This document shows positions 10,787 through 50,329 of a stretch of 64,000 nucleotides of DNA, one piece after another. Position 1 is the stretch's first letter. Every line of letters begins with the position of its first letter. The stretch covers positions 5,482-69,481 of the forward strand of contig JAHHHS010000028.1 of the NCBI GenBank assembly GCA_019359215.1. Direction: 5' to 3'. A program made the translations under genes and the position numbers. The notes under the pieces are model-generated. The model was given only the letters and a program-made list of their open reading frames with translations. It was not told the DNA's origin and did no database searches. This DNA comes from Nostoc indistinguendum CM1-VF10 (lineage in GTDB: Bacteria > Cyanobacteriota > Cyanobacteriia > Cyanobacteriales > Nostocaceae).

Positions 10787-12523
10787 ATGTCTGCTGCCAC
10801 ATTAATGCCCAACCATAGCAAAGATGTACAAGTTGTTGAAATTGGTAAAAATACTCTGATTCTACGATCGCGGACTTGGGACAGATTAAAATTTGAGGTG
10901 GAGTATTCCCGCCAACGGGGAACTACAGCGAATTCTTATCTAATTCAAGCTGATAAAAAGGCTTTAATTGACCCTCCTGGCGAATCTTTTACCGAAATTT
11001 ACCTTCAGCAACTTGCACAACATTTAGACTTTACTACCCTAGATTACATTGTTCTGGGTCATGTCAACCCAAACCGCAGCGCAACTCTGCAAGTATTGCT
11101 CTTTCAGGTTCCTCAAGCCACTATAATTTGTTCTCGCCCCGCCGCCAATGCTATCAAAACTGCCTTTCCCGAATTAGAGCCACGTATTCAAGCGGTGCGA
11201 TCGGGGGATACTCTAGATTTAGGACAAGGACATCTTCTATCATTTATCACTGTACCAACTCCCCGGTGGGCAGACGGACTTTGTACTTATGATGCTGCAA
11301 CAAAAATTCTCTACACAGATAAACTTTTTGGCGCTCATATTTGCGAAGATACTTTATTTGATGAAGATTGGAAGGGATTAGATGCGGAACGTCGTTACTA
11401 TTTTGAATGTCTCCATGCACCCCAAGCTAAACAAGTTGAAGTAGCCTTAGATAAATTGTCAGTTTTGGGAGCCAGATGTTATGCCCCAGCACATGGGCCA
11501 GTTGTCCGTTACAGCCTTAGCCGTTTTACTTATGATTACCGTCAATGGTGTCAAGGGCAAAAATCTCAAGAGTTGAGTGTCGCTTTGCTTTATGCTTCTG
11601 CTTATGGAAATACAGCAATTATGGCGAATGCGATCGCTCAAGGTTTGATCCAAAATGGAGTTAATGTAGAATCGATTAACTGCGAACTAGCAGACTCGGC
11701 GGAGATTAACCGCATTGTAGAAACTTGCGATGGCTTGATTATCGGCTCACCCACTTTAGGCGGACATGCACCTACTCAAATTCAAACTGCTTTAGGAATA
11801 GTTCTCTCGGTGGCGGCTAAAACTAAGTTAGCAGGGGTGTTTGGTTCTTACGGTTGGAGTGGCGAGGCAATAGATTTAATCGAAAGCAAGCTCAAAGATG
11901 CTAATTATCAACTAGGATTTGAAACACTTCGGGTGCGTTTCAGTCCTACTCCTGAGATTCTTCAGCAATGTCAAGAAGCAGGTGCTTTATTTGCCCAAAA
12001 CTTGAAGAAAACTAAAAAATTGCGTTCTTCCCGGCAGGTTGTGACAGAAACCCATGTAGATCGTACCGAACAAGCTGTGGGGCGGATCATTGGTTCTCTG
12101 TGTGTTGTGACAACTCGTGATGAGGAAACTCACAAAGGGGTTTTAACTTCTTGGCTATCGCAGGCAACTTTTAACCCGCCAGGAATTATGATTGCGATCG
12201 CTAACGAGCAAAATGCAGATTTAATGCATCATCCTGGTGATAAATTTGTGCTGAATATCCTTAAAGAAGGAAGAAATGTCCGACGGTATTTTTCTCGTCA
12301 TAGCACTTTAGGCGATAATCCCTTTGCAAATCTGGACACAAAAACTGCTCTTAATGGTTGTTTGATTCTGAATGAGGCATTAGCCTATTTAGAATGTACA
12401 GTGCAAAATCAGCTTGAATGTGGCGATCGATGGTTAATTTATGCCGTCATCGATCACGGTGAAGTGTTGGAAAATGAAGGTGTCACTGCTTTAGAACATC
12501 GTAAATCAGGCAGCTATTATTAA
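10787..12523 (+). CDS. flv2: Flavodiiron protein Flv2
   Basis: Same three-domain architecture as Flv4 but with a non-canonical ligand motif GHVNPNRSA, as expected for Flv2. Start placed at ATG 10787 (MSAATLMPN) because upstream codons are STRR-derived. Confidence 0.85.
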
Positions 12524-12592
12524 TCTGACTTTTTACGGTATCTGGAAAACCTCACTTCTATTTCTCTCTCCTCTTAGGCTACGGTGTACACA

Positions 12593-12697
12593 CGAGGGCT
12601 TTCGTTCAGAACGCGAGGGCTTTCGTTCAGAACATGAGGGCTTTCGTTCAGAACACGAGGGCTTTCGTTCAGAACGCGAGGGCTTTCGTTCAGAACA
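12593..12697. repeat. Tandem repeat, 21 nt x 5 (CGAGGGCTTTCGTTCAGAACR)
   Basis: Five head-to-tail units read directly, with variation only at unit junctions. Lies between convergent flv2 and the pentapeptide gene; the last unit overlaps the latter's stop codon. Confidence 0.9.
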
Positions 12698-13034
12698 CCG
12701 CAGCACGTAGATTACTATCAGAAATAAATAAGCCAGAGAGATTAGTATCAGAAAAATTAGCTGATTGTAAGTTAACTTTCTCTAACGAAACTTTATAGTC
12801 TGCATTACAACTAAAATCAATATCACCAATTTCTGAAAATCCCGATTCTCCATGATCTTCAGATATCACAATCCATCGCATCTCTGCTTGACGTAGATCA
12901 GCACCTTGTAAATTTGCACCATCTAATTTAGCATCTGTCAGTTCAGCTTCCCTTAAATCTGCTCCAGCTAAATCAGCATTTTTTAAATCTGCACCACCTA
13001 AATCACACTTAGGACATTTTTTAGTTGTCAGCAA
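12690..13034 (-). CDS. Pentapeptide repeat protein (see finding: upstream lipoprotein signal peptide interrupted by an in-frame TGA)
   Basis: 114-aa ORF from TTG with runs of A(D/N)LxG pentapeptides (ADLKNADLAGADLREAELTDAKLDGANLQGADLRQA). Confidence 0.75.
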   Translation of the reverse strand: MLTTKKCPKCDLGGADLKNADLAGADLREAELTDAKLDGANLQGADLRQAEMRWIVISEDHGESGFSEIGDIDFSCNADYKVSLEKVNLQSANFSDTNLSGLFISDSNLRAAVF

Positions 13035-13295
13035 CTGCTTTATTTGATTGAGATTTGCAGTTCTTTTAGCCTCACAATCTGTACAACCAGAAATAAAACT
13101 AATTCATAGAACTGATGCAATTAGTTTTTTTAATTTCATATAGATATTCAATTATGAATTATCAATTATTTTGATACAAAGAGATTTTTCAGGAACTTTA
13201 CCCATTATCGGCGAATCTTAGTGCCAGTCCCCCATACCCAATATCGTGATCTAAGATTGTTGGGTATTCTATAAATTGCGATCGCCACTATACCG

Positions 13296-14300
13296 ATGAT
13301 CGAAGTTGAACATTTAAGTAAAATATACGGTTCCACCCCAGCGATTACTGATGTCACTTTTAGCGTCGAACCTGGGGAGATTTTAGGGTTATTGGGCCCC
13401 AATGGCGCTGGTAAAACCACAACCATGAGGATTCTGGCTGGTTATTTACCGGCAACTAATGGAAATGCCCGGATTGCTGGTTATGATGTCCATGAAAATT
13501 CCCTAGCTGTACGCCAACGCATTGGTTATTTACCGGAAACACCGCCCTTATATCCAGACATGACGGTGGAAGGATTTTTGCATTTTGTCGCCCGAATTAA
13601 GGGAGTATCAGCAGGCGATCGCCCCAACAAGGTAACAGCCGCTATCGAACGCTGCAACTTAGAAGATAAGCGGCGGGTGATTATTCGCAAACTCTCTAAA
13701 GGATACCGCCAAAGAGTAGGAATTGCTCAAGCGATCGTCCACGATCCACCAGCGATCATTTTGGATGAACCCACCGTTGGACTCGATCCCCGACAAATAA
13801 TTGAGGTGCGGAATTTAATCAAAAGCCTTGCTGGTACTCACACAATTATTCTTTCTACGCACATTTTGCCAGAAGTGAGCATGACTTGTAGCCGCGTCGC
13901 CATCATCAATCGCGGCAAAGTTGTGGCCACTAATACACCAGAAAACTTGATGACTCAGTTGACAGGTGGTTCAGGGTATGAATTGGAAATAGAAGGAGAA
14001 GCTGCCCTAGCGAAACAAGTATTGCAAAATGTCGCGGGTGTGAGTCTGATAGAATCAATTTCCACAGCCGGAGGTCATCAACCCCAGGAAAACCGCGCTT
14101 ACCTGCGGGTAATATCGCAACCGGGAAAAGAACCAGGAAAGGATATTGTTGCAACATTAGTGCGTGCAGGCTTTGGCTTACATGAATTGAAGCGAGTTAA
14201 CGCCACCTTAGAGGATGTATTCTTGCAACTAACCACAGAAGAAAAGAATTTCGAGACTGAGGTAGACTTAGCAGCAGACAAAGAAGGAGAAGCAGCATAA
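13296..14300 (+). CDS. ABC transporter ATP-binding protein (ABC-2 / GldA-like)
   Basis: Walker A GPNGAGKTT, signature LSKGYRQR, Walker B IILDEPT. First gene of an ATPase-permease-GldG-DUF4340 cluster. Confidence 0.9.
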   Translation: MIEVEHLSKIYGSTPAITDVTFSVEPGEILGLLGPNGAGKTTTMRILAGYLPATNGNARIAGYDVHENSLAVRQRIGYLPETPPLYPDMTVEGFLHFVARIKGVSAGDRPNKVTAAIERCNLEDKRRVIIRKLSKGYRQRVGIAQAIVHDPPAIILDEPTVGLDPRQIIEVRNLIKSLAGTHTIILSTHILPEVSMTCSRVAIINRGKVVATNTPENLMTQLTGGSGYELEIEGEAALAKQVLQNVAGVSLIESISTAGGHQPQENRAYLRVISQPGKEPGKDIVATLVRAGFGLHELKRVNATLEDVFLQLTTEEKNFETEVDLAADKEGEAA

Positions 14301-15113
14301 ATGGGTGTAGTGCTGAGTAATATTATTGCCATTTATCGCCGAGAGTTACAGAGTTATTTTGTATCGCCTTTAGCTTATGCGATCGCAGGCATATTTTGGT
14401 TCATCGCCGGGTTATTCTTCGTGATGATTTTGCTAGGGCCAGATGGCATTTTGCTAGGAGTCGCGGCAATAGATGCACAAGGGCAACAACTGGGAGTGCC
14501 AACACCGCCGATAGATGTCCCCTACGAATTTATCCGGGCATTCTTGGATCGCATGGGTTGGCTATTGTTATTTATCCTGCCAATTCTCTCGATGGGACTC
14601 TATGCCGAAGAACGTAAGCGCGGCACTTTAGAACTATTAGCTACATCACCAATCACCAATTGGGCGGTAGCTATAGGTAAGTTATTAGGTGTGCTGACAT
14701 TTTTTACTACGATGGTTGTACCCATGCTAGTGTTAGAAGCGATCGCAATCAGTGGATCAAATCCACCAATAGCGTTCTCAATTCCCTTGCTGGGTCATTT
14801 TGGATTAATCTTGCTAGCAGCAGCAATTTTATCTGTAGGAATGTTTATTTCTTCATTAACAGACAGCACAATTCTGTCTGCCGTCTTCACCTTTGCAGTA
14901 ATTTTATTATTGTTATTGATTGATTTAATCGCCAAAATTGTCCCTAGCCCCGTGGGCGAAGCATTAGGTTATCTGTCGTTACTGAAACATTACAACACTT
15001 TAATTCAAGGGATTTTTGATACCAGCGCCTTAATTTTATTCGCCAGTTACATTTTTTTGGGCATTTTTCTGACCGCTCAATCAATTGATGCACTGCGCTT
15101 TCAAAGGCAATAG
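14301..15113 (+). CDS. ABC-2 type transporter permease (GldF-like)
   Basis: 270 aa with about 6 hydrophobic helices. The ATG abuts the ATPase stop codon. Confidence 0.8.
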   Translation: MGVVLSNIIAIYRRELQSYFVSPLAYAIAGIFWFIAGLFFVMILLGPDGILLGVAAIDAQGQQLGVPTPPIDVPYEFIRAFLDRMGWLLLFILPILSMGLYAEERKRGTLELLATSPITNWAVAIGKLLGVLTFFTTMVVPMLVLEAIAISGSNPPIAFSIPLLGHFGLILLAAAILSVGMFISSLTDSTILSAVFTFAVILLLLLIDLIAKIVPSPVGEALGYLSLLKHYNTLIQGIFDTSALILFASYIFLGIFLTAQSIDALRFQRQ

Positions 15114-39000: not shown

Positions 39001-39248
39001 CAGTCAGAACGATCACATTAAGGATTGTAACAATATGTTGAAGAATTGGACATGGGCCATTAGACATTGAGCATTAGAATTAAAATAATTCTTTTTCAGT
39101 ACCCAATCGCCAGTACCCAGTGGTTTGGTACACTTAAATGGGCATACTAGTTCAATAGTAGTAGGTATTGCTAGTTGCTAAAAGATGAGACTTATTATCC
39201 TGTAAGTTGGAAGTATTTGGCATCTGCCCTCATGGAGAATTTGGCTTG

Positions 39249-40997
39249 ATGTTGCTTTGCCTGCGAATTGAAAACTTTGCCCTAATTGACCAACTGGAAT
39301 TGGAATTCGGCGCGGGACTAAATGTGTTGACAGGTGAAACTGGCGCTGGAAAATCGATTATCTTGGATGCCATTGATGCGGTTTTGGGCGGTAAAGTCTC
39401 TAGTCGAGTCATTCGCACAGGAACAAATCGGGCAATGGTAGAAGCTACTTTTACCTCAAACGCCCCCCTAGCAGCTTGGTTGACCGAACAAGAAATAGAT
39501 TTGCTTGATGAAAATTCCGTAGTCATTAGCCGAGAAATTACAGCCACTGCTACTAATATCCGTAGTCGATCGCGGGTGAATGGCGTGTTGGTAAATCGGC
39601 AGATAATGGGAGGAATGCGCGATCGCTTGGTGGAAATCACAGCCCAAGGCCAAACGGTACAAGTGGGACAATCTGCCCAAGTCCGCGACTGGTTAGATTT
39701 ATATGGGGGTGACTCTCTGATGCAGCAGCGTCATCGGGTCGCTACGAGCTTCAGTAGTTACCAACAGGCGCATTCAGCACTAGAAAAACGCCGGACATCG
39801 GAACGGGAACGGTTGCAACAACTCGATTTGCTCACTTATCAAGTGCAAGAATTGGGAGCAGCAAATCTCAGCGAACCTGATGAATTGGAACAATTGGGAC
39901 AAGAACGGGAACGCCTAAATCATGTCGTTGATTTGCAACAAATGAGTTACAAGGTTTATCAGGCTTTGTATCAAAACGATAATGAAACTCCCGCCGCAGG
40001 TGATTTATTGGGAGACAGTGAGGCGATATTAAATGACATGGTGGAATATGATACGCAATTGCAACCCCTATTGGAATTGGTGAGGGACGCGCAAGCTGCG
40101 GTAATGGAAGTGGGAAGGCAGATCAATGCCTATGGGGATGGATTGGAAGCTGATCCGCATCGGTTGGAAGAGGTGGAAGAACGGATTCAGGAATTAAAGC
40201 AAATTTGCCGCAAATATGGGCCGACACTTACAGAAGCGATCGCTTATTACCAACGTATTCAAGGGGAATTAGCCCAACTTAACGACAGCGAACAATCTAT
40301 CGAAAACCTAGAACAGCAAGAAAAGGCGTGTTTTGAAAAACTCACCCAAGCAACTAATCAGTTAACTCAACTACGGAGTAAAGCGGCTGCTAATTTAGAA
40401 TCACGTTTGATAGCTGAACTCAAGCCCCTAGCGATGGAAAAGGTGAAGTTTCAGGTTGAGATAGTGCCTACTTTCCCAACTGCTATGGGAGCAGATAAAA
40501 TTACCTTTATGTTTAGTCCCAACCCTGGAGAACCACTGCAACCTTTAATGGAAATTGCCTCTGGGGGGGAAATGAGTCGCTTTTTATTGGCGCTGAAAGC
40601 TTGTTTTTCTCAGGTTGATGCAGCTGGGACAATGGTATTTGATGAAATTGATGTCGGGGTTTCGGGAAGGGTAGCTCAAGCGATCGCGGAAAAATTACAC
40701 CAGCTAAGTCAACGTAACCAAGTATTATGTGTTACTCACCAGCCTTTAGTTGCGGCAATGGCTGATCGGCATTTCCGCGTCGATAAGCAAACTGTCAATC
40801 AAGGTAAAGGGAAAAAAGCCAATAATGGTAACACTGAGCAGCGTACTGTTGTGCGAGTTACTACATTAGATAATTTAAATACTCGCCGGGAAGAACTAGC
40901 ACAGTTAGCTGGTGGTAAATCTGCAAGTGATGCGATCGCTTTTGCAGAATCTCTGTTATTACAAGCTGCTGACCACCGTCGCGGGGAGCAAACTTAA
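39249..40997 (+). CDS. recN: DNA repair protein RecN
   Basis: MLLCLRIENFALID start, Walker A GETGAGKS, long coiled coil, SGGEMSR signature, Walker B VFDEIDVGVSG. The ORF opens at TTG 39207 but ATG 39249 gives the canonical N-terminus. Confidence 0.9.
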   Translation: MLLCLRIENFALIDQLELEFGAGLNVLTGETGAGKSIILDAIDAVLGGKVSSRVIRTGTNRAMVEATFTSNAPLAAWLTEQEIDLLDENSVVISREITATATNIRSRSRVNGVLVNRQIMGGMRDRLVEITAQGQTVQVGQSAQVRDWLDLYGGDSLMQQRHRVATSFSSYQQAHSALEKRRTSERERLQQLDLLTYQVQELGAANLSEPDELEQLGQERERLNHVVDLQQMSYKVYQALYQNDNETPAAGDLLGDSEAILNDMVEYDTQLQPLLELVRDAQAAVMEVGRQINAYGDGLEADPHRLEEVEERIQELKQICRKYGPTLTEAIAYYQRIQGELAQLNDSEQSIENLEQQEKACFEKLTQATNQLTQLRSKAAANLESRLIAELKPLAMEKVKFQVEIVPTFPTAMGADKITFMFSPNPGEPLQPLMEIASGGEMSRFLLALKACFSQVDAAGTMVFDEIDVGVSGRVAQAIAEKLHQLSQRNQVLCVTHQPLVAAMADRHFRVDKQTVNQGKGKKANNGNTEQRTVVRVTTLDNLNTRREELAQLAGGKSASDAIAFAESLLLQAADHRRGEQT

Positions 40998-41090
40998 CAA
41001 GTTTAGGTAACTCCATAAGCGTTTATGCTCTTGGATCTTCCCAAAGTAACAAAAGCATTCGAGGAAAGCGATCGCATTTGAAGTTGAATC

Positions 41091-41526
41091 GTTTCAACAC
41101 CCCTTCCAGCTAGAGGCGATTTGAAAGGAGTGAACACACAAAAAAGAAAAGCAATCAAAAGTATTTCAATACCCTTCTCCCTTCTCAGTTAAAGATGGTT
41201 TAAAATCAGGAAAAATGAGACTTTGCACGATAATACTTTTTTACGTTTCAAAAGCATTCCTAGTTAGAGATGAGCTGAAATAAAACTCTGAAAATTGACA
41301 ATTTTTGGCTCTTGCGTTGGTTTTATGGTATGGCATTAAAATAGCCATTTTATAGAAAGGTTCAAAAATTTAAAATCCAGTCATAGCAAGGAATATAGGC
41401 TCTGATTAGGTTTTATTTATTATTCGACTCCATAAAAAAACTGAAGAGCCCAATTTTTTTAGTGAGAGTTTTATAAACTTCTCTTAAAAATAGGTGGGTT
41501 GAAAGATTGGTAAAAGTCATAGAATT
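41091..41526 (+). CRISPR. Decayed CRISPR-like array: one good 37-nt repeat plus five degenerate copies; the last (atypical) repeat is followed by a mutL-matching spacer
   Basis: R1 GTTTCAACACCCCTTCCAGCTAGAGGCGATTTGAAAG at 41091-41127. Degenerate copies start at 41161, 41245, 41320, 41410 and 41468 (the last ends GGTGGGTTGAAAG at 41505). Irregular 58-90-nt spacing. No cas genes in the window. Confidence 0.55.
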
Positions 41527-41710
41527 CTTGGACTAATGGGGCAAAAACTTGTCAACTTACAGCAATTTTCATTTCTTTGAACTACAAATCCTCGTAGAGG
41601 ATAAGGTCTTGCTGGCAAGGTTAATGTATGACAGTAACACACCACGCTGAGAAGTTTAACGATATTATTTTTTAAATGGTTAGCTAACACGATTTTATGG
41701 CATGTTAATG

Positions 41711-41775
41711 CGGACATTATTTTGGCAAAACGGACATTAATTTGTCAACGCAGACAAATAATTTGGCAAACGACA
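41711..41775 (+). mobile_element. Three 20-bp-spaced direct repeats resembling TnsB-binding sites of a Tn7-like (CAST) transposon end, terminating in ACA
   Basis: Cores GACATTATTTTGGCAAA (41713), GACATTAATTTGTCAA (41733) and GACAAATAATTTGGCAA (41753). The last core is followed by ACGACA, ending at 41775. Confidence 0.5.
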
Positions 41776-41813
41776 ACCTACCGCGTGGTCTAGTATTGGC
41801 ATTACTGAAAACA

Positions 41814-43496
41814 TCAAATTCCATGACTTTTACCAATTACCCAATTACGCCGGAAAAACCGGGCTAAAGCTGATTCTTCTAAAGATAAATAAATTGGTCG
41901 TCCGTGGGGACAGGTGCGAGGGTTGCGAGTACGTTGCCAATTATCTAAAAGTGTCTGCATTTCTTGTTGGTTCATAGGTGTACCATTACGAATGGCACTG
42001 CGACAGGCAACAGCTACTTGGGCTGTTTGTAAGTCGCCTCCCCAACTAAGTTCTAAAATTGCTTCTGCACAGTTGTCTCGTTGTTGCAAAGGTGCGGGTA
42101 TGTTTCGCACTGCCCAAAGTTGTTCGCCAAAGGGGTCTATTTCTAAACCGATGCGTTGCAATTGCGATACTTGCGCTGGCGATAATTGATAAAGAATAAT
42201 TGGTGGTTCGACGGGAACAAGTTGCCAATCATCACACAATTGCTCATACAAAACTCGCTCATGGGCAATGTGCTGTTCTACTAACCACATTCCCCCAGAG
42301 TGTTCCGCCACAATATAAGTGTTGCTAACTTGAGCAACAGCTTTCAAGGTGTTAGGAGTTTTGTGATTTTCGTTGGGATTTTGAGGATTGAAATTGTAGC
42401 CGCCTTTTGCTTCTGCAACTTTGAGTAATTTACTAACTCGTGTTGTGTGGACAGCTTCATTGAGATTGTTAGAAGAGATGCTGAGTGCTTGGTTAATTGC
42501 TTGGGTAATTTGCTCTTGCCAATAAATGATTTCGTTGAGGTAAATTTCTGTTTTTGCTGGATTGCGATTCCAATTAATTTGCTCAGGGGAAATCGCAAGA
42601 TGTAAGAAACAAATTGGATAGCGATCGCGTGGTAATGTTTTATGAAATGCTGATAATATTGTTTGCTCTAGTTCTGGTGTCTTAACCATCCTGCCGTTGA
42701 TGGCTACACGCACCCAATCTGGACGATGACGATGACAGCGATCAGGTAATCCTACCACTAAATTGAGTGCTGAGTGGGGAGTGGGGAGTGGGGAGTTATG
42801 CGGGTTGGGTATTTCGAGTTTCAATTCTTGCAAATCACCTTGTCGCACCTGGGGTAAAATCTGCGGTAGCAACTGCCCAGTTGTCTTAGCAGGAGAGATG
42901 CTGAACCATTGACGGTCATTTTGGCAAACTTGCCAGGTGACGTGGGGATGACATAAAGCAATTTGTTGAATTGTGGCTTGCACGGCTTTCATTTGCTGTG
43001 CGATTGTAGGCAATCCTTGACGACGAGATGAGCAATTACCGAAAAGATGAGAAACTGTTACCACTGTACCAGGTGCGATCGCAGTTACTTCAACTTGCAC
43101 AACTTCCCCACCATTGCCATAGCTAATCCGCCATCCTAATTTTCCATTCACAGGACGACTCAAAATTTCTAAATCTGCCAGAGTCGTCAAACTATGCAAC
43201 GCCTCACCACGAAACCCCAAACTGTTAATTTTCCATAAATCGGCACTAGAGCGAATTTTACTAGTGCTGTGGGCTGTGGCTGCTTGCTGCAAATCATCTA
43301 GGTTCATCCCACAACCATTATCTGCCACACGAATTCGCCATTGCTGCGGCCATAGAGAAACCACAATGCGCGTTGCACCTGCGTCTAGGGAATTTTCTAC
43401 CAATTCCCGCACCACAGAAGCAAAACAGTCGATTACCTCACCAGCTGTAATAAGATATACGACTTCTGTTGGTAGAGCTTGAATAGTAGATGCCAT
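41814..43496 (-). CDS. mutL: DNA mismatch repair protein MutL
   Basis: Start at ATG 43496 (MASTIQALPTEVV). GHKL ATPase motifs ELVENSLDAGA, DNGCGM and FRGEAL. C-terminal dimerisation/endonuclease region. The linker contains an in-frame GGGGAGT heptamer tract. Confidence 0.9.
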   Translation of the reverse strand: MASTIQALPTEVVYLITAGEVIDCFASVVRELVENSLDAGATRIVVSLWPQQWRIRVADNGCGMNLDDLQQAATAHSTSKIRSSADLWKINSLGFRGEALHSLTTLADLEILSRPVNGKLGWRISYGNGGEVVQVEVTAIAPGTVVTVSHLFGNCSSRRQGLPTIAQQMKAVQATIQQIALCHPHVTWQVCQNDRQWFSISPAKTTGQLLPQILPQVRQGDLQELKLEIPNPHNSPLPTPHSALNLVVGLPDRCHRHRPDWVRVAINGRMVKTPELEQTILSAFHKTLPRDRYPICFLHLAISPEQINWNRNPAKTEIYLNEIIYWQEQITQAINQALSISSNNLNEAVHTTRVSKLLKVAEAKGGYNFNPQNPNENHKTPNTLKAVAQVSNTYIVAEHSGGMWLVEQHIAHERVLYEQLCDDWQLVPVEPPIILYQLSPAQVSQLQRIGLEIDPFGEQLWAVRNIPAPLQQRDNCAEAILELSWGGDLQTAQVAVACRSAIRNGTPMNQQEMQTLLDNWQRTRNPRTCPHGRPIYLSLEESALARFFRRNWVIGKSHGI

Positions 43497-43695
43497 AAAT
43501 TCTAGTTTATAGCTTCTGGGTGCAAGAGAAGTGGAGAGATGTACAAGAAATTGCTGACGTGGTAACATTCATGGCGAGCTACCAATTTATAATTGGTATT
43601 ATACGCTTACTTACTAGAAAATTGATTTTTTACCTCAGAGTAAAAAATTTTGCTCGTTGTCAAAGCCAATATTCTTTTATAGTAGAGGACTGCAA

Positions 43696-44367
43696 ATGAC
43701 ACTGCGATCGTACAACAGTATATGTCTTGTTTCACTAGTTTTCTCTTTAGTTAGTGTGGGTGCGAGTACAGCAAAAGTGATCGCTCAGACTACTTATCCT
43801 TTTGAAGCTACCTACAACTCAGAAATTACCACTAAAGAAACGAACATACCATTGGTTTTAGATACAACTGTCATCGGCGAAACTCTCGATGCACCATATA
43901 ATTTAACTAACCTGATAATCAGGAACTACAGTCAGGTTGATCCTAATACTGGTGTAGCTACATACAATTCCGATCCAGCAACCTTTGGTTTACAAAACGT
44001 ACCATTTGGTACTCTTACTTTGTCTGGTCAAGGAAATGATAAACTCTTTGGAACTAATGCAGGTACTGCTTCGCTTGAGAGCGGTTCTGGTACAATAAGT
44101 ATCACTGGTGGTGAAGGTAGATTTATAGGTGCTACTGGCACCTTAGATTTATTTCAGACTATTACATCCAATCCAGACCCAACTGGGCTAACTGCACCTA
44201 TAATATCGCCGGCAAGAATAAGTGGCTCGTTTGTGGTATCCCAAGGAGTTCCGGAACCGAAAACTGATGCGATGTTAGTTGCGATAGGTGTCATTGGAAC
44301 TGGTTTGGTGCTGCGCCGACACCGCCGATCTTCGGCTGTTAGAAGTAAAGTATATCAGGTTCGTTAA
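43696..44367 (+). CDS. PEP-CTERM sorting-domain protein
   Basis: Signal peptide from ATG 43696 (MTLRSYNSICLVSLVFSLVSVGASTAKVIAQ). C-terminal VPEP + hydrophobic helix + RRHRR. The ORF opens at TTG 43657. Confidence 0.75.
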   Translation: MTLRSYNSICLVSLVFSLVSVGASTAKVIAQTTYPFEATYNSEITTKETNIPLVLDTTVIGETLDAPYNLTNLIIRNYSQVDPNTGVATYNSDPATFGLQNVPFGTLTLSGQGNDKLFGTNAGTASLESGSGTISITGGEGRFIGATGTLDLFQTITSNPDPTGLTAPIISPARISGSFVVSQGVPEPKTDAMLVAIGVIGTGLVLRRHRRSSAVRSKVYQVR

Positions 44368-44404
44368 GGGACTTTTGACAGAAATTAGATTGAAGATGTC
44401 TTAC

Positions 44405-44799
44405 AGAAAACATTAAATTCCATAACTTTTGCCAATTACCCAATTACGCCGGAAAAACCGCGCTAAAGCCGATTCTTCTAAAGATAGATAAATTGGGCGT
44501 CCGTGAGGAGAGGCGCGATTAAACCAATTCGCAAGTCGCAATTACGTTTTGTAACGGGGATTTTACCCTGACAGAAAACCTGCCGCCTGTAGAGGCAGGG
44601 CACTTAAACCCCCAAACTTTGTTAATTGCGTCCGTACTGGGGAGTGGGGAGGATTGGATATTTCGAGTTTCACCTCTTGTAAATCACCTTGTCGCACCTA
44701 GGGTAAAATCTGCGGTAGGAGTTGCCCAGTTGTCGCAGCTGGAGATATGGTGAACTATTGACGGTCATTTTGCCAAATCTGCCAGGTGACGTGACGATG
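44405..44799 (-). pseudogene. mutL relic (two collinear fragments of a second mutL copy)
   Basis: 44405-44517 aligns to 41806-41920 (mutL 3' end including stop), about 90 percent identity by hand count. 44633-44799 aligns to 42775-42949 (linker region), about 85-88 percent. Same strand and order as the intact gene; the N-terminal ATPase part is absent. Confidence 0.75.
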
Positions 44800-46784: not shown

Positions 46785-47111
46785 AAATCAAGTAAATATT
46801 GAATCTCTAAAATATCTCTAGCTATTGTCCAGCCTCAAGCTGGATATAGTTATTATTAAAGGTGCGATGCCTGGTTTGGGCTACGCCTACGCACATACAA
46901 ATCCGTTAATTGTGGCTGGATAATTTTGCAGAAAAACGTCCTTACACTATAACAGTGCAGGCAGAAGTTTTTGAGAAAACTGATACTATACTCATGCACC
47001 ACCAAAAAATTAGAGAATTAGGCACAAAGTAATTAGAACTGTGCTTAGTTTCTAATAGTTTGTCAAATTTAAATTGATGGGTAATCAACTTCGCAGTAAG
47101 GACTTTAGTCC

Positions 47112-47870
47112 TTAATTTCGTTGCAACCACTCATCTAAGCGAGACATTTCCACCGCACGGTTCAACAGCAATCCATTCACCTCGTTTGAGCCGGAGTGGA
47201 GGGCTAAAATATAATACTTGCCGTTTATATTACTGATAATTGCACCTCCAGAAGCACCTTGATTAGTATCACAGTTGTGGTATAACACGTTATACTGACG
47301 GCGAAGGATACTGCATTCCAGGTGAACACCAGCAGTCATACTTTCACCAGCAGTAAGATTTTCATAACCTTTTTTCTTGGGATTGGGAAAATCACTAGAA
47401 TAGCCTACCAAAGCGAACTTTTTCGTATCGCCAACCAAACTAGGAGATGGTAGGGATTTCCAGCCCAAATAACCATATTTTTTACCAATAGGCTTGTTGA
47501 GCTTCAAAATCGCCCAATCATTTGCGTAATCGGCTAAATCGCCATTTTTAAAGTCTGTGCCGTAATAAACATTAGTGGCGTAGGCTACATCATCTTTATT
47601 TTTGACGACACCATTAGCTAAGTTTGGCTGAAATGCGATCGCTTGACTAACTTTTCCGGTTTTAGAGTTAACGACACAGTGAGCATTTGTCAAAACAACG
47701 TCTTCAGCAATCAACGTTCCCGTGCAACTGTAGCTGCTACCGTCAGTATCTACCCCCTCAATTTTACCAATGGCTGACCAAGGGTAGTCTCTGCTAGTCA
47801 TGGGAATACGGTCATCCTTTGAACCAATAATTACCCGTTCTCCGGGGAGTTTCTCTTTCTGATTTAGCAC
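47112..47870 (-). CDS. Trypsin-like (S1 family, V8/Glu-endopeptidase-like) serine peptidase
   Basis: LTNAHCV (His), DWAIL (Asp), CDTNQGASGGAI (Ser). GTG start. No signal peptide is visible; the upstream frame closes at a TGA about 80 nt above. Confidence 0.8.
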   Translation of the reverse strand: MLNQKEKLPGERVIIGSKDDRIPMTSRDYPWSAIGKIEGVDTDGSSYSCTGTLIAEDVVLTNAHCVVNSKTGKVSQAIAFQPNLANGVVKNKDDVAYATNVYYGTDFKNGDLADYANDWAILKLNKPIGKKYGYLGWKSLPSPSLVGDTKKFALVGYSSDFPNPKKKGYENLTAGESMTAGVHLECSILRRQYNVLYHNCDTNQGASGGAIISNINGKYYILALHSGSNEVNGLLLNRAVEMSRLDEWLQRN

Positions 47871-48093
47871 CGAAGGCTCCCCTTTTCCTTCTAGTTTAAA
47901 TTCTCCGGGATTTTCAACCTTGGTGGGGTTTGTGATTCGGCATCAAGTTTTTGCCTGTGTAGCCGCGAATTCCATTCGCCAAGGCAAAAGTAGACACGTA
48001 TGAGATGCGATCGCCGATTACGAAACTCAGTTTAAATGGAGAGTGGGAAGCGTAGCCGTAGCCGATCGTAGACATCGCTCTTTATAGTAGATA

Positions 48094-49480
48094 TTAACCC
48101 TGTTTTGTCACTCTGGCAGTAGTATAATAAAGTACGAATGCTAGAGCCAAGACACAGAGTATGGTACAGCCTCGTCCAGCCGCACCAACAGTAAAATTTG
48201 TGGACGAATATTGCCAATGGTATAAAAGCCTGTTTCCAGGTGTTAGGAGCTTCGAGGCTTTTAAATACCTTCATGTAGGGTGTATTTCTGAACTAAAACG
48301 GAAAACCCTACCAGAAATAGCACAAATTGTAGGATTGGACAATCACTCTTTAACTACATCACCTTGGGATATAGAGAAGTTAAGAGCTTTGCGATTAGAG
48401 CTAATTTTACAAGTTCTAAAAGGTAGACCAATCATTCTAATTATTGATGAGACAGGAAATAAAAAGAAAGGGAATAAGACAGATTATGTGAAACGACAGT
48501 ACATAGGTAATTTGGGTAAGGTAGAAAATGGAATTGTAGCAGTCACGGCGTATGGTGTATTCTGTGGGATGACTTTTCCATTACTGTTTGAAGTATACAA
48601 GCCACGCGAAAGATTAAAGCCAGGAGATAAATATCTTACTAAGCCTCAAATAGCAGCAATAATCATAAAAAAGCTAGAGTTGATGGGTTTTAACTTCAAC
48701 CTAGTACTCGCAGATAGCTTATATGGTGAGAGTAGTGCTAATTTCATATCTATATTAAACGATCTGGGGTTAAATTATCTAGTGGCGATTCGCTCAAACC
48801 ATTCTGTAGAGCTACTTCCTAGACAACATACTCAATATTTAAAGTGGCATAAGTTTAAAAGGGTATTCTCTAACTTGAGCAGTGAGAATCGGTTTATTAG
48901 GGAAATAATTCATGGTAAACGACAAGAAAAAAGGTATTGGCAGATTACTACTGACATTGAGAAATTACCCGGTAACACTACTTGGTATGTGATGAGTAAA
49001 TACGCAGACCTTACACCAAGAGATGTGGGAAACTTTTATGGTTTAAGAACTTGGGTTGAATATGGCTTGAAGCAAAGTAAAATGAATTAGGTTGGGCTGA
49101 CTACCGTTTAACTCGCTATCAAGATATTGAACGCTGGTGGGAGATTGTTTGTAGTAGCTACTTAATGGTTAGCCTTCACTCTGAACAAACGTTTTCGGCT
49201 CTCAGGCAATCAAAATTAAAATCTAATTTTGCTTCACACCCCTGGTGGGATGATGGAAAAGGCTGGAAGAATATTCTTAACAATCTCCGTTTAATAATTC
49301 AACCTTTTACTTTATTTAACCTAATATATCCCTGGTTAACAGTTTTTCCTATTCCCCAATTGTCCTTGGGTTTTTCTAAACTTCAATCTATTATTTATAA
49401 CCTCACCACTTCAATTTTTATTTTCATGACTCACCCTGATTTGTACTTTTCCTCTGCCTAGAGTGACAAAACAGGGTTAA
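48094..49480 (+). mobile_element. IS701-family (IS4 superfamily) insertion sequence, 1387 bp
   Basis: Perfect 21-bp terminal inverted repeats ttaaccctgttttgtcactct (48094-48114) / agagtgacaaaacagggttaa (49460-49480), extendable to about 26 bp with one indel. DDE transposase inside. No obvious target-site duplication. Confidence 0.85.
48161..49461 (+). pseudogene. IS701-family DDE transposase, frameshifted
   Basis: ORF A 48161-49090 (..LIIDETG.., ..LADSLYGES.., ..RTWVEYGLKQSK) continues in the -1 frame as NELGWADYRLTRYQDIERWWEIV.. to 49461. The break lies in an A-run at about 49079-49082. Confidence 0.8.
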
Positions 49481-49533
49481 ACAACTATAAGCAGTTCTTT
49501 GTCTACATCCCAGCAAAATGCGACAATATAAAG

Positions 49534-49782
49534 ATGAGGTTTACTAATTATTTGGCAATGGAAGTTTTAAAACTTACAACTAAAATCGATGAATCAGGAT
49601 ATTTAAATCTTAATATTCCAACGCAGTTAGCGGCGGTTGAAGTTGACATTGTAGTTGTTTTGAATCCAGTTTCGTCAGAGGAAAAGCAGCAACCTAGTTA
49701 TGATTTCTCTGATTTGGTGGGGCGATTAAGTTGGCGGGGAGATGCGGTAGCAATGCAGAGGAATCTACGCGATGAGTGGTAA
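49534..49782 (+). CDS. vapB: Putative antitoxin of a VapBC-type pair
   Basis: 82-aa ORF (alternative ATG 49558) overlapping the PIN toxin gene by 11 nt. Confidence 0.6.
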   Translation: MRFTNYLAMEVLKLTTKIDESGYLNLNIPTQLAAVEVDIVVVLNPVSSEEKQQPSYDFSDLVGRLSWRGDAVAMQRNLRDEW

Positions 49783-50149
49783 TCGCTACGTGTTGGATAC
49801 GAATGCGATAGTAGCTCTGCTTCAAGGAAATTCTCAACTTATTCAATTACTCCAAGATGCTGATTGGATTGGAGTTTCAGTTATTAGCAAAATTGAATTT
49901 CTCGCGTTTTCTGGGTTGAGTCAAGAGGATCGTCAGCTTTTTGAGCAGTTTTTGCAACGAGTTGAGGTTGTCAATTTAGTGGCGAGTGATGCTGTTTTGA
50001 TTAAGAAAATCATTGAAATTCGCCAGCAATATCGTTTGAAACTACCAGATGCAATTATTGCAGCAATGGCGATCCAAAATTCAGCAAGTTTGGTGACTGC
50101 CGATCAAGAGTTTGCGAAGGTAACAATTTTAACAGTAATTAATTGGTAG
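49772..50149 (+). CDS. vapC: PIN-domain toxin VapC
   Basis: 125 aa with YVLDTNAIV, LPDAIIAA and TADQEF acidic PIN motifs. Confidence 0.8.
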   Translation: MSGNRYVLDTNAIVALLQGNSQLIQLLQDADWIGVSVISKIEFLAFSGLSQEDRQLFEQFLQRVEVVNLVASDAVLIKKIIEIRQQYRLKLPDAIIAAMAIQNSASLVTADQEFAKVTILTVINW

Positions 50150-50329
50150 ATTCCATCACAATAAGTAAAAAAGTCAAATAAAAATTCTGTAGCTTGATCG
50201 CCGCAATGCTCAAGCGATAAGTAACAGAAAGCTTTGGCTATTTTTTTCGATTTAAGAGCGATGTTTACAATGGTCACTGAGCTTGCCGGAGTACGGGCTA
50301 AAAGTCTTCTGAGTCCTTATGTCAACCCT

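Follow-up and report, generated by a model that had tools for sequence, protein, structure and literature searches.

A probable one-ended remnant of a mutL-homing, CRISPR-associated transposon of type V-K in the recN-mutL spacer of Nostoc indistinguendum CM1-VF10

In Nostoc indistinguendum CM1-VF10, the genes recN and mutL converge on an 816-bp spacer, which is part of the 64-kb stretch of DNA analysed here (hereafter referred to as the window). This spacer very probably holds an inactive remnant, ~0.7 kb in length, of a type V-K (Cas12k) Tn7-like transposon from a Nostoc lineage that homes to mutL. The original prediction, which was made from the DNA letters alone, had already recognised the relic end of a V-K-like transposon associated with CRISPR, together with a last CRISPR RNA (crRNA) directed against the 3' end of mutL. 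Both intact homologous elements and a published catalogue of CRISPR-associated transposons (CASTs) now support this core reading. For comparison, a MutL-based scan with one genome per species yielded 80 Nostoc loci, each with 10 kb of flanking DNA and encoding MutL proteins to which that of the window is 84-97% identical; individual loci are designated by L numbers.

Anatomy of the remnant

The stub is one-ended and extends from 41078/41091 to 41775 (Table 1). Its only full-length CRISPR repeat, R1 (GTTTCAACACCCCTTCCAGCTAGAGGCGATTTGAAAG, 37 nt), agrees with the V-K consensus GTTTCAACACCCCTCCCAGCTAGAGGCGGGTTGAAAG at 34/37 positions, whereas composition-preserving shuffles of the region reached no more than 20/37, and the earlier claim of a CRISPR-type repeat at this position is thereby borne out. 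With its length of ~37 nt and its GTTTCAAC...GGTTGAAAG form, R1 has the features of V-K repeats; in short form, the R1-type repeat reads GTTTCAACACCCCT...GTTGAAAG. A scan for GGTTGAAAG alone was uninformative, giving 20 matches vs 19.7 expected. As had been proposed, further repeat-like units follow R1, though their number is three rather than five, the DNA at 41307-41450 being an unrelated insertion. The unit R2 (~41164-41206) contains a 7-nt insertion, R3 (41245-41281) matches the consensus at 26/37 positions, and the attachment-site repeat unit (41469-41505) matches it at 24/37 overall and at 14/15 over its 3' end. The copies had been described as increasingly degenerate. Post-deletion decay is ruled out for R2 and R3: intact elements carry R1, R2 and R3 in conserved form (alignment A1), and both degenerate repeats are therefore native to the transposon.

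The homing function of the element is reflected by the last of these units, which is diverged but, as described originally, keeps its 3' end in the form of the truncated repeat TAGGTGGGTTGAAAG (41491-41505), situated directly 5' of the guide spacer ATTGGTAAAAGTCATAGAATT (41506-41526). The spacer comprises a 17-nt core (41506-41522), beyond which its match to mutL extends to 41526. Guide spacer and protospacer agree at 20/21 positions overall and at 16/17 over the core, the sole mismatch being an A instead of a G at spacer position 16 (41521). Together they form the top inverted repeat of the region, and when up to 3 mismatches are allowed, the guide 21-mer matches the window three times, as opposed to 0.00 expected. 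The match begins at the repeat/spacer junction and ends after 21 nt, with GAAAG and CTTGG flanking it on the spacer side and GGGTA and TGATG on the target side. The correspondence to the mutL stop region thus stands as first described. Moreover, the protospacer lies further downstream and in opposite orientation, as is the rule for truncated repeat-spacer units, and the predicted GTN-type protospacer adjacent motif (PAM) was confirmed as GTA, read from 41840 to 41838. The protospacer 17-mer is kept with 0-2 mismatches in 80/80 Nostoc loci.

Two further observations concern the guide. All intact elements have a homing spacer that agrees with mutL along 21 nt, compared with the 17 nt given in the published table. 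In addition, an invariant block of ~45 nt, GAGTTTTACAAACTTCTCTTAAAAATAGGTGGGTTGAAAG, is found 5' of the truncated repeat (alignment A1 columns 557-660, window 41451-41560), a hint that the homing guide has a conserved promoter or processing signal. Scans for promoters and terminators in the recN-mutL spacer gave counts at chance level.

On the side facing mutL, the stub is bounded by a left transposon end that combines a TGT terminus, repeated transposase sites, a distance within the range of ~60-66 bp from the PAM and the position nearest to the target. Three TnsB-type sites with a spacing of 20 bp (41753-41775, 41733-41752 and 41713-41732) read TGTCGTTTGCCAAATTATTTGTC, TGCGTTGACAAATTAATGTC and CGTTTTGCCAAAATAATGTC on the minus strand, the terminal T being 41775. 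Here the end closes with ...ACGACA, that is, TGT on the minus strand, 62 nt from the first protospacer base, which confirms the three direct repeats and their distance from the PAM as originally reported. The alignment with characterised V-K ends that had been proposed as a check places the terminus at 19/20 identity to a catalogued end. Cas12k CASTs possess TGT/ACA termini, multiple TnsB sites and delocalized crRNAs with short homing spacers that normally target tRNA genes, and against this background a mutL target had first appeared to depart from the pattern. Both mutL and mutS were already listed as attachment sites, the former with a near-identical guide (Hsieh & Peters, bioRxiv 2021, doi 10.1101/2021.02.06.429022). 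The related concern that an array next to the target is not canonical is likewise settled, this layout being the canonical one both in that catalogue and in the intact Nostoc elements L020, L047, L055 and L065.

Between the end and the guide the DNA is conserved but non-coding, and an open reading frame (ORF) of 66 aa at 41517-41717 is taken as spurious. The 144-bp insertion bears imperfect terminal inverted repeats of ~20 nt (GGCTCTTGCGTTGG... / ...CTGAAGAGCC) with T-rich flanks and looks like a miniature inverted-repeat transposable element (MITE); no further copies were detected in the window or in the fetched Nostoc loci. At the opposite side of the stub, the transposon homology of the window ends leftward at 41091, while the homology of the recN flank to four other genomes ends at ...GCGATCGCAT, 41077. 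The 13 nt in between are possibly the stump of the preceding spacer.

Table 1. Features of the recN-mutL spacer and its surroundings (window coordinates unless a locus is named)
Feature	Position	Strand	Evidence or remark
recN	39207..40997	+	Pfam SMC_N, AAA_23; protein 100% identical to RecN of N. indistinguendum CM1-VF10; host gene abutting the truncated side of the relic
13 nt TTGAAGTTGAATC, holding the junction with recN-side DNA	41078..41090	+	CAST homology ends at 41091; recN-flank homology ends at 41077
Terminal full-length CRISPR repeat R1, sole survivor of the array	41091..41127	+	34/37 to V-K consensus; 37/37 to L020 terminal repeat
Degenerate repeats R2 and R3 with spacer-like DNA between	41164..41281	+	Identity to consensus; conserved in L020, L055, L051, L023, L047
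MITE-like 144-bp insertion	41307..41450	.	Missing from all intact relatives; imperfect terminal inverted repeats
Attachment-site (homing) guide unit	41491..41526	+	Truncated repeat of N. linckia z2/z6/z9; guide one base off; most conserved block of alignment A1
Non-coding interior, end to guide	41527..41710	-	41451-41612 is 92-94% identical to L020, L047, L055, L065, L078
Left (attachment-site-proximal) transposon end, terminus 5'-TGTCGTTTGCCAAATTATTT	41711..41775	-	19/20 to TGTCGATTGCCAAATTATTT; aligns with ends of L065, L023, L074, L068, L021
Host flank, 38 nt, mutL stop codon to transposon end	41776..41813	-	First 31 nt identical in Nostoc sp. XA013 (L002)
mutL, intact, 584 aa, attachment-site gene	41814..43568	-	Pfam DNA_mis_repair, MutL_C, HATPase_c_3
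Protospacer, last 7 mutL codons (I G K S H G I), immediately before the stop codon	41817..41837	-	20/21 match
PAM GTA (GTN type), directly 5' of protospacer	41838..41840	-	Read from sequence; N. linckia mutL elements also have GGTA context
Trypsin-like peptidase gene	47112-47870		
DDE_5 transposase	48161-49090		
PIN-domain gene	49772-50149		
Junction regions compared	window 40998-41090; L002 11744-11936; L082 11750-11935; L083, L085 from 11750		

Intact relatives, missing parts and the mutL site in Nostoc

A Cas12k coding sequence is located directly downstream of mutL in 7 of the 80 Nostoc loci, so that CASTs do occur beside mutL in relatives, one of the points on which the original prediction had staked its refutation. 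The protein is of full length in L020, L047, L055 and L065 and comprises 562 aa in L078, while in L051 and L016 the gene is cut by contig ends. The identity of the 635-aa ORF beside the array of L047 as Cas12k is evident from its match to the ShCas12k structure 7n3o (E = 1e-273). Intact elements follow a common order, in which mutL is succeeded by ~60 bp, the transposon end, the homing guide on the strand opposite to mutL, degenerate repeats, the CRISPR array and cas12k; a divergent MerR-family gene and restriction-modification cargo come after cas12k. As far as the array, the window displays the same order as these seven elements, at an identity of mostly 89-94% over the guide and degenerate-repeat blocks: the segments 41091-41306 and 41451-41612 are 89-94% identical to L020, L051 and L055 and somewhat less so to L047, and conservation in alignment A1 is highest in the block surrounding the guide. 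Unlike the intact elements, the window stub lacks Cas12k, MerR and cargo. Most intact elements feature a second left-end type, TGTACATTAACTAATTATTT, and ~300 bp more between end and guide, and none of them has the 144-bp insertion, which is confined to the window stub.

The earlier statement that cas12k, tnsB, tnsC, tniQ and a trans-activating crRNA (tracrRNA) are absent was borne out; unless stated otherwise, the following negative results, like those on the second end, refer to the 64-kb window. Neither Cas12k nor MerR gave a tblastn match, the query being Cas12k of L047, and tblastn with the TnsC and TniQ fragments of L027 was negative as well. Used as blastn queries, the array-to-merR intervals of L020, L047 and L055, which span tracrRNA and cas12k, matched the window at the repeat only. 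A tracrRNA as expected between cas12k and array was found neither with these intervals nor with Rfam. The Pfam scan took in 46 ORFs, among them every non-overlapping ORF of 120 aa or more; four short ORFs nested antisense in annotated genes lay outside it. It revealed no rve, TniB or TniQ domains, and apart from an unrelated DDE_5 transposase the genes were of ordinary chromosomal kinds. Scans for Rfam families and tRNAs were empty, hence the window offers no tRNA attachment site. No inverted second (right) end was detected at up to 5/20 mismatches, and no further repeats were found elsewhere in the window. The DNA of ~6 kb past the right end of the window contains ordinary genes and no remainder of the element, and at the left end only genes that already lie inside the window came up.

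The comparative survey identifies the 3' end of mutL as a major V-K CAST hotspot in Nostoc, most occupants of which are relics. A left end was counted where it was recognisable no more than 150 bp from the stop codon of mutL, which is the case in 22/80 Nostoc loci, with distances of 51-62 bp from the PAM (for example, at position 11817 of L020 and 2635 of L065). In only four to seven loci is cas12k still found beside the end, and in at least 13 loci with enough flank the end is present and cas12k absent; roughly nine (~9) more loci exhibit weaker traces of an element. Two types of left end occur at mutL, TGTACATTAACTAATTATTT and TGTCG(A/T)TTGCCAAATTATTT, and both are joined to the same homing-guide block. 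Since deletion boundaries vary from locus to locus, the relics represent independent decay products and not copies of a mobile mini-element.

Individual loci illustrate the range of remains. In L005 (11697-12594), a cas12k fragment (aa 74-307) and a merR fragment directly abut mutL, end and guide being gone, and merR fragments alone persist in L028 (11848-11961) and L072 (2077-2196). In L048 (~11790-11890), a CRISPR repeat is joined at its middle to 7 bp of the end, partial ends occur in L004, L034 and L044, and other species keep 7-25 bp of the end or none. The combination of end and guide is independently kept by L023. Stacked termini, TGTACATT TGTACATTCACTAATTA..., are found in L012 (~11870), which suggests repeated insertions. 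Finally, L027 (Nostoc sp. P6602 bin 13, 11876-14629) holds a two-ended mini-element of 2.75 kb at the mutL site, with a Fic gene and truncated tniQ and tnsC but lacking the guide, the array and cas12k, and L056 resembles the corresponding empty site.

In the literature the mutL site appears only as one of "a few instances", and its status as a hotspot is a by-product of the present comparison. The hotspot, the dominance of relics and the two end types may be of modest use to CAST researchers. Stub and survey leave the understanding of the V-K mechanism unchanged, and the locus itself matters very little.

Origin of the stub and competing explanations

In general terms, the homing guide, consisting of a ~15-nt repeat tail and a 17-21-nt spacer, would pair with tracrRNA and be loaded into Cas12k, the resulting complex would bind the last mutL codons beside the GTN PAM, and TniQ, TnsC and TnsB would then insert the element ~60 bp downstream in such a way that its left end, the one nearer to the guide, faces mutL. 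Because the insertion lies ~60 bp downstream of its target, mutL is left undisrupted. The window contains the product of such an insertion, with fitting guide, PAM, distance and orientation. Subsequently, from a point within the CRISPR array onwards, the whole remainder of the element would have been lost by deletion or rearrangement, including the other repeats, tracrRNA, cas12k, the merR-type regulator, cargo, tniQ-tnsC-tnsB and the right end, and the small MITE-like element would have inserted into the remaining stub thereafter. On account of the single end, the missing tracrRNA, the MITE-like insertion and the guide mismatch at position 16, we infer that the stub is inert at present. An intact element would be completed by a right end in inverted orientation and a 5-bp target-site duplication, of which the former is absent from the window.

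Only three genomes have recN adjoining mutL: that of the window, Nostoc sp. XA013 (L002) and Nostoc sp. FACHB-888 (L082). FACHB-892 (L003) and three further assemblies have different genes after recN, and the recN-mutL junction is therefore derived. Among five genomes with three different neighbours, the homology downstream of recN has the same endpoint after a HIP1 palindrome, in ...GCGATCGCAT. Both junction flanks of the window recur in XA013 and FACHB-888, where they enclose a spacer of 187-193 bp with hairpins. Considered as an empty site, these two spacers demonstrate neither clean insertion nor clean excision, and by their sequence they may represent either an unoccupied state or a stub wholly lost.

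Several points weigh against the interpretation as an inactive deletion remnant. The recN-mutL spacers of XA013 and FACHB-888 show no trace of a transposon; the 7 nt beside the end differ from these two genomes, and a middle part of ~94 bp is unmatched. Moreover, the missing half could reside elsewhere in the genome if an inversion split the element, and the guide unit, still matched at 20/21 positions, could be transcribed.

The first alternative follows from this: the element might have been split rather than deleted, an inversion or translocation at the array breakpoint having moved the remainder, possibly still partly functional, elsewhere in the chromosome. Both the derived recN-mutL junction, limited to three genomes, and the coincidence of the breakpoint with the array would suit such an event, as would the finding of Hsieh & Peters that many cas12k genes are separate from tnsBCQ. 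Nevertheless, a split is unlikely, because XA013 and FACHB-888 share both flanks without transposon DNA, so that no inversion is needed for the adjacency, and because simple internal deletions of varied extent are seen at the mutL site of other species.

It is still less probable that the stub has been retained as a functional unit, either because a further resident Cas12k element uses its guide in trans or because its TnsB sites guard mutL by target immunity. The guide, matched at 20/21 positions, is the best-conserved part of the relic, end and guide persist independently in L023, and V-K CASTs seem to possess target immunity according to a passage of review text. These points are opposed by the MITE-like insertion, the position-16 mismatch of the guide and an alteration of the conserved block upstream of it, and the 7-25 bp of end, or none, that other species keep argue against consistent retention, while the stacked ends of L012 imply that immunity is not absolute. 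In addition, no Cas12k of CM1-VF10 was recognised by name among the best 120 homologues listed, a name match being a weak test. If true, a trans-acting guide or immunity scar would turn decayed CAST ends into a selectable host feature by which a mismatch-repair locus is kept free of 25-kb insertions.

Of the two possibilities considered originally, a heavily deleted CAST fits the data, and the other, a miniature non-autonomous satellite with ends and homing guide that is mobilised by V-K machinery encoded elsewhere, does not, as only one end is present in the window. The retention of a homing guide and of a complete-looking left end with three transposase sites would be in line with a satellite, and a two-ended mini derivative does exist in L027. 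On the other hand, the search for an inverted second end left the window with one end of the two, its recN-side boundary is a CRISPR repeat and not a transposon terminus, the stub lacks tracrRNA, and its boundaries are shared by no other locus, which speaks against a propagating family; a satellite is thus highly improbable. Finally, the view that the resemblance arose by chance, or that the repeats belong to an ordinary CRISPR array of the host with no connection to transposons, can adduce only the absence of cas genes and is refuted by the 21-mer match with its 0.00 expectation, by a repeat score of 34/37 against a shuffle maximum of 20 and by the extended 89-94% homology to Cas12k-linked elements.

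Beyond the stub, the window carries a decayed second copy of mutL in the ancestral position after an adenosine deaminase gene (44401-44518, 44638-44799, 43657-44367). An internal fragment thereof is 84% identical to 42782-42950, and its 3' end is 90.7% identical to 41802-41919, including its own PAM and a protospacer copy (44416-44436) with 2 mismatches, which constitutes the third match of the guide 21-mer. After this copy come an unoccupied flank and an ORF of 236 aa that adjoins mutL on its downstream side in FACHB-892 (L003). An intact mutL with the relic beyond a decayed copy is encountered in 0/80 other loci, and the second copy may have arisen by duplication, have been imported by recombination or be the footprint of a cointegrate. 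Further along, a 3.3-kb segment (46987-50313) with the peptidase, transposase and PIN-domain genes of Table 1 is replaced by 170 bp in XA013, and only the PIN part is present in L004; it is probably an insertion associated with an insertion sequence.

Comparison with known systems

According to Hsieh & Peters (doi 10.1101/2021.02.06.429022), Tn7-CRISPR-Cas12k elements contain a truncated repeat-spacer unit of ~13 nt of repeat tail and a 17-nt spacer, sited at or past the end of the array downstream of cas12k, whose protospacer is found further downstream in opposite orientation with a GTN PAM. Their attachment sites are mostly tRNA genes but also include mutS and mutL. The latter is represented by the ~27.5-kb elements of N. 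linckia z2, z6 and z9 (Table S1 rows 44-46), with the guide ATTGGTAAAAGTCATGG, the truncated repeat TAGGTGGGTTGAAAG, the PAM context TGGGTA, the array repeat GTTTCAACACCCCTCCCAGCTAGAGGCGGGTTGAAAG and the target-proximal end TGTCGATTGCCAAATTATTT, an end that occurs 18 times in that table at various attachment sites. The window shares the attachment gene, protospacer position, truncated repeat and GGTA context with these elements, and differs from them in 1/17 positions of the guide, 1/20 of the left end and 3/37 of the array repeat (a match of 34/37). The distance from end to guide amounts to ~253 bp in the window and 267 bp in N. linckia. In contrast to the window, the N. linckia elements are equipped with cas12k, a merR-type gene and the three genes tnsB, tnsC and tniQ, and they have both a right end and an array extending over ~1.4 kb.

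As summarised in the literature on CASTs, ShCAST of Scytonema hofmanni (Strecker et al. 2019) resembles the window in its 37-nt repeats ending in GGTTGAAAG, its GTN PAM, insertion at ~60-66 bp, a left end nearest to the target and a short processed guide. Unlike the stub, ShCAST is an autonomous element whose homing target is a tRNA gene, and its end sequences differ in detail from those of the window. The mini-element of L027, in turn, has its attachment site, family and internal-deletion origin in common with the window; it keeps both ends and has lost the guide, whereas the window stub keeps the guide and one end.

A parallel with regard to decay is provided by degraded Cas12k loci. In the catalogue, tnsBCQ are kept in only 152/282 cas12k loci, 130/282 being without them (doi 10.1101/2021.02.06.429022). 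The window stub is alike in its decay and in having kept an end, array and attachment-site match. The catalogued loci retain cas12k, which the stub has lost too, and a survey based on cas12k would miss it for this reason. Taken together, the stub is an additional degraded member of a catalogued family and of a kind that is already known.

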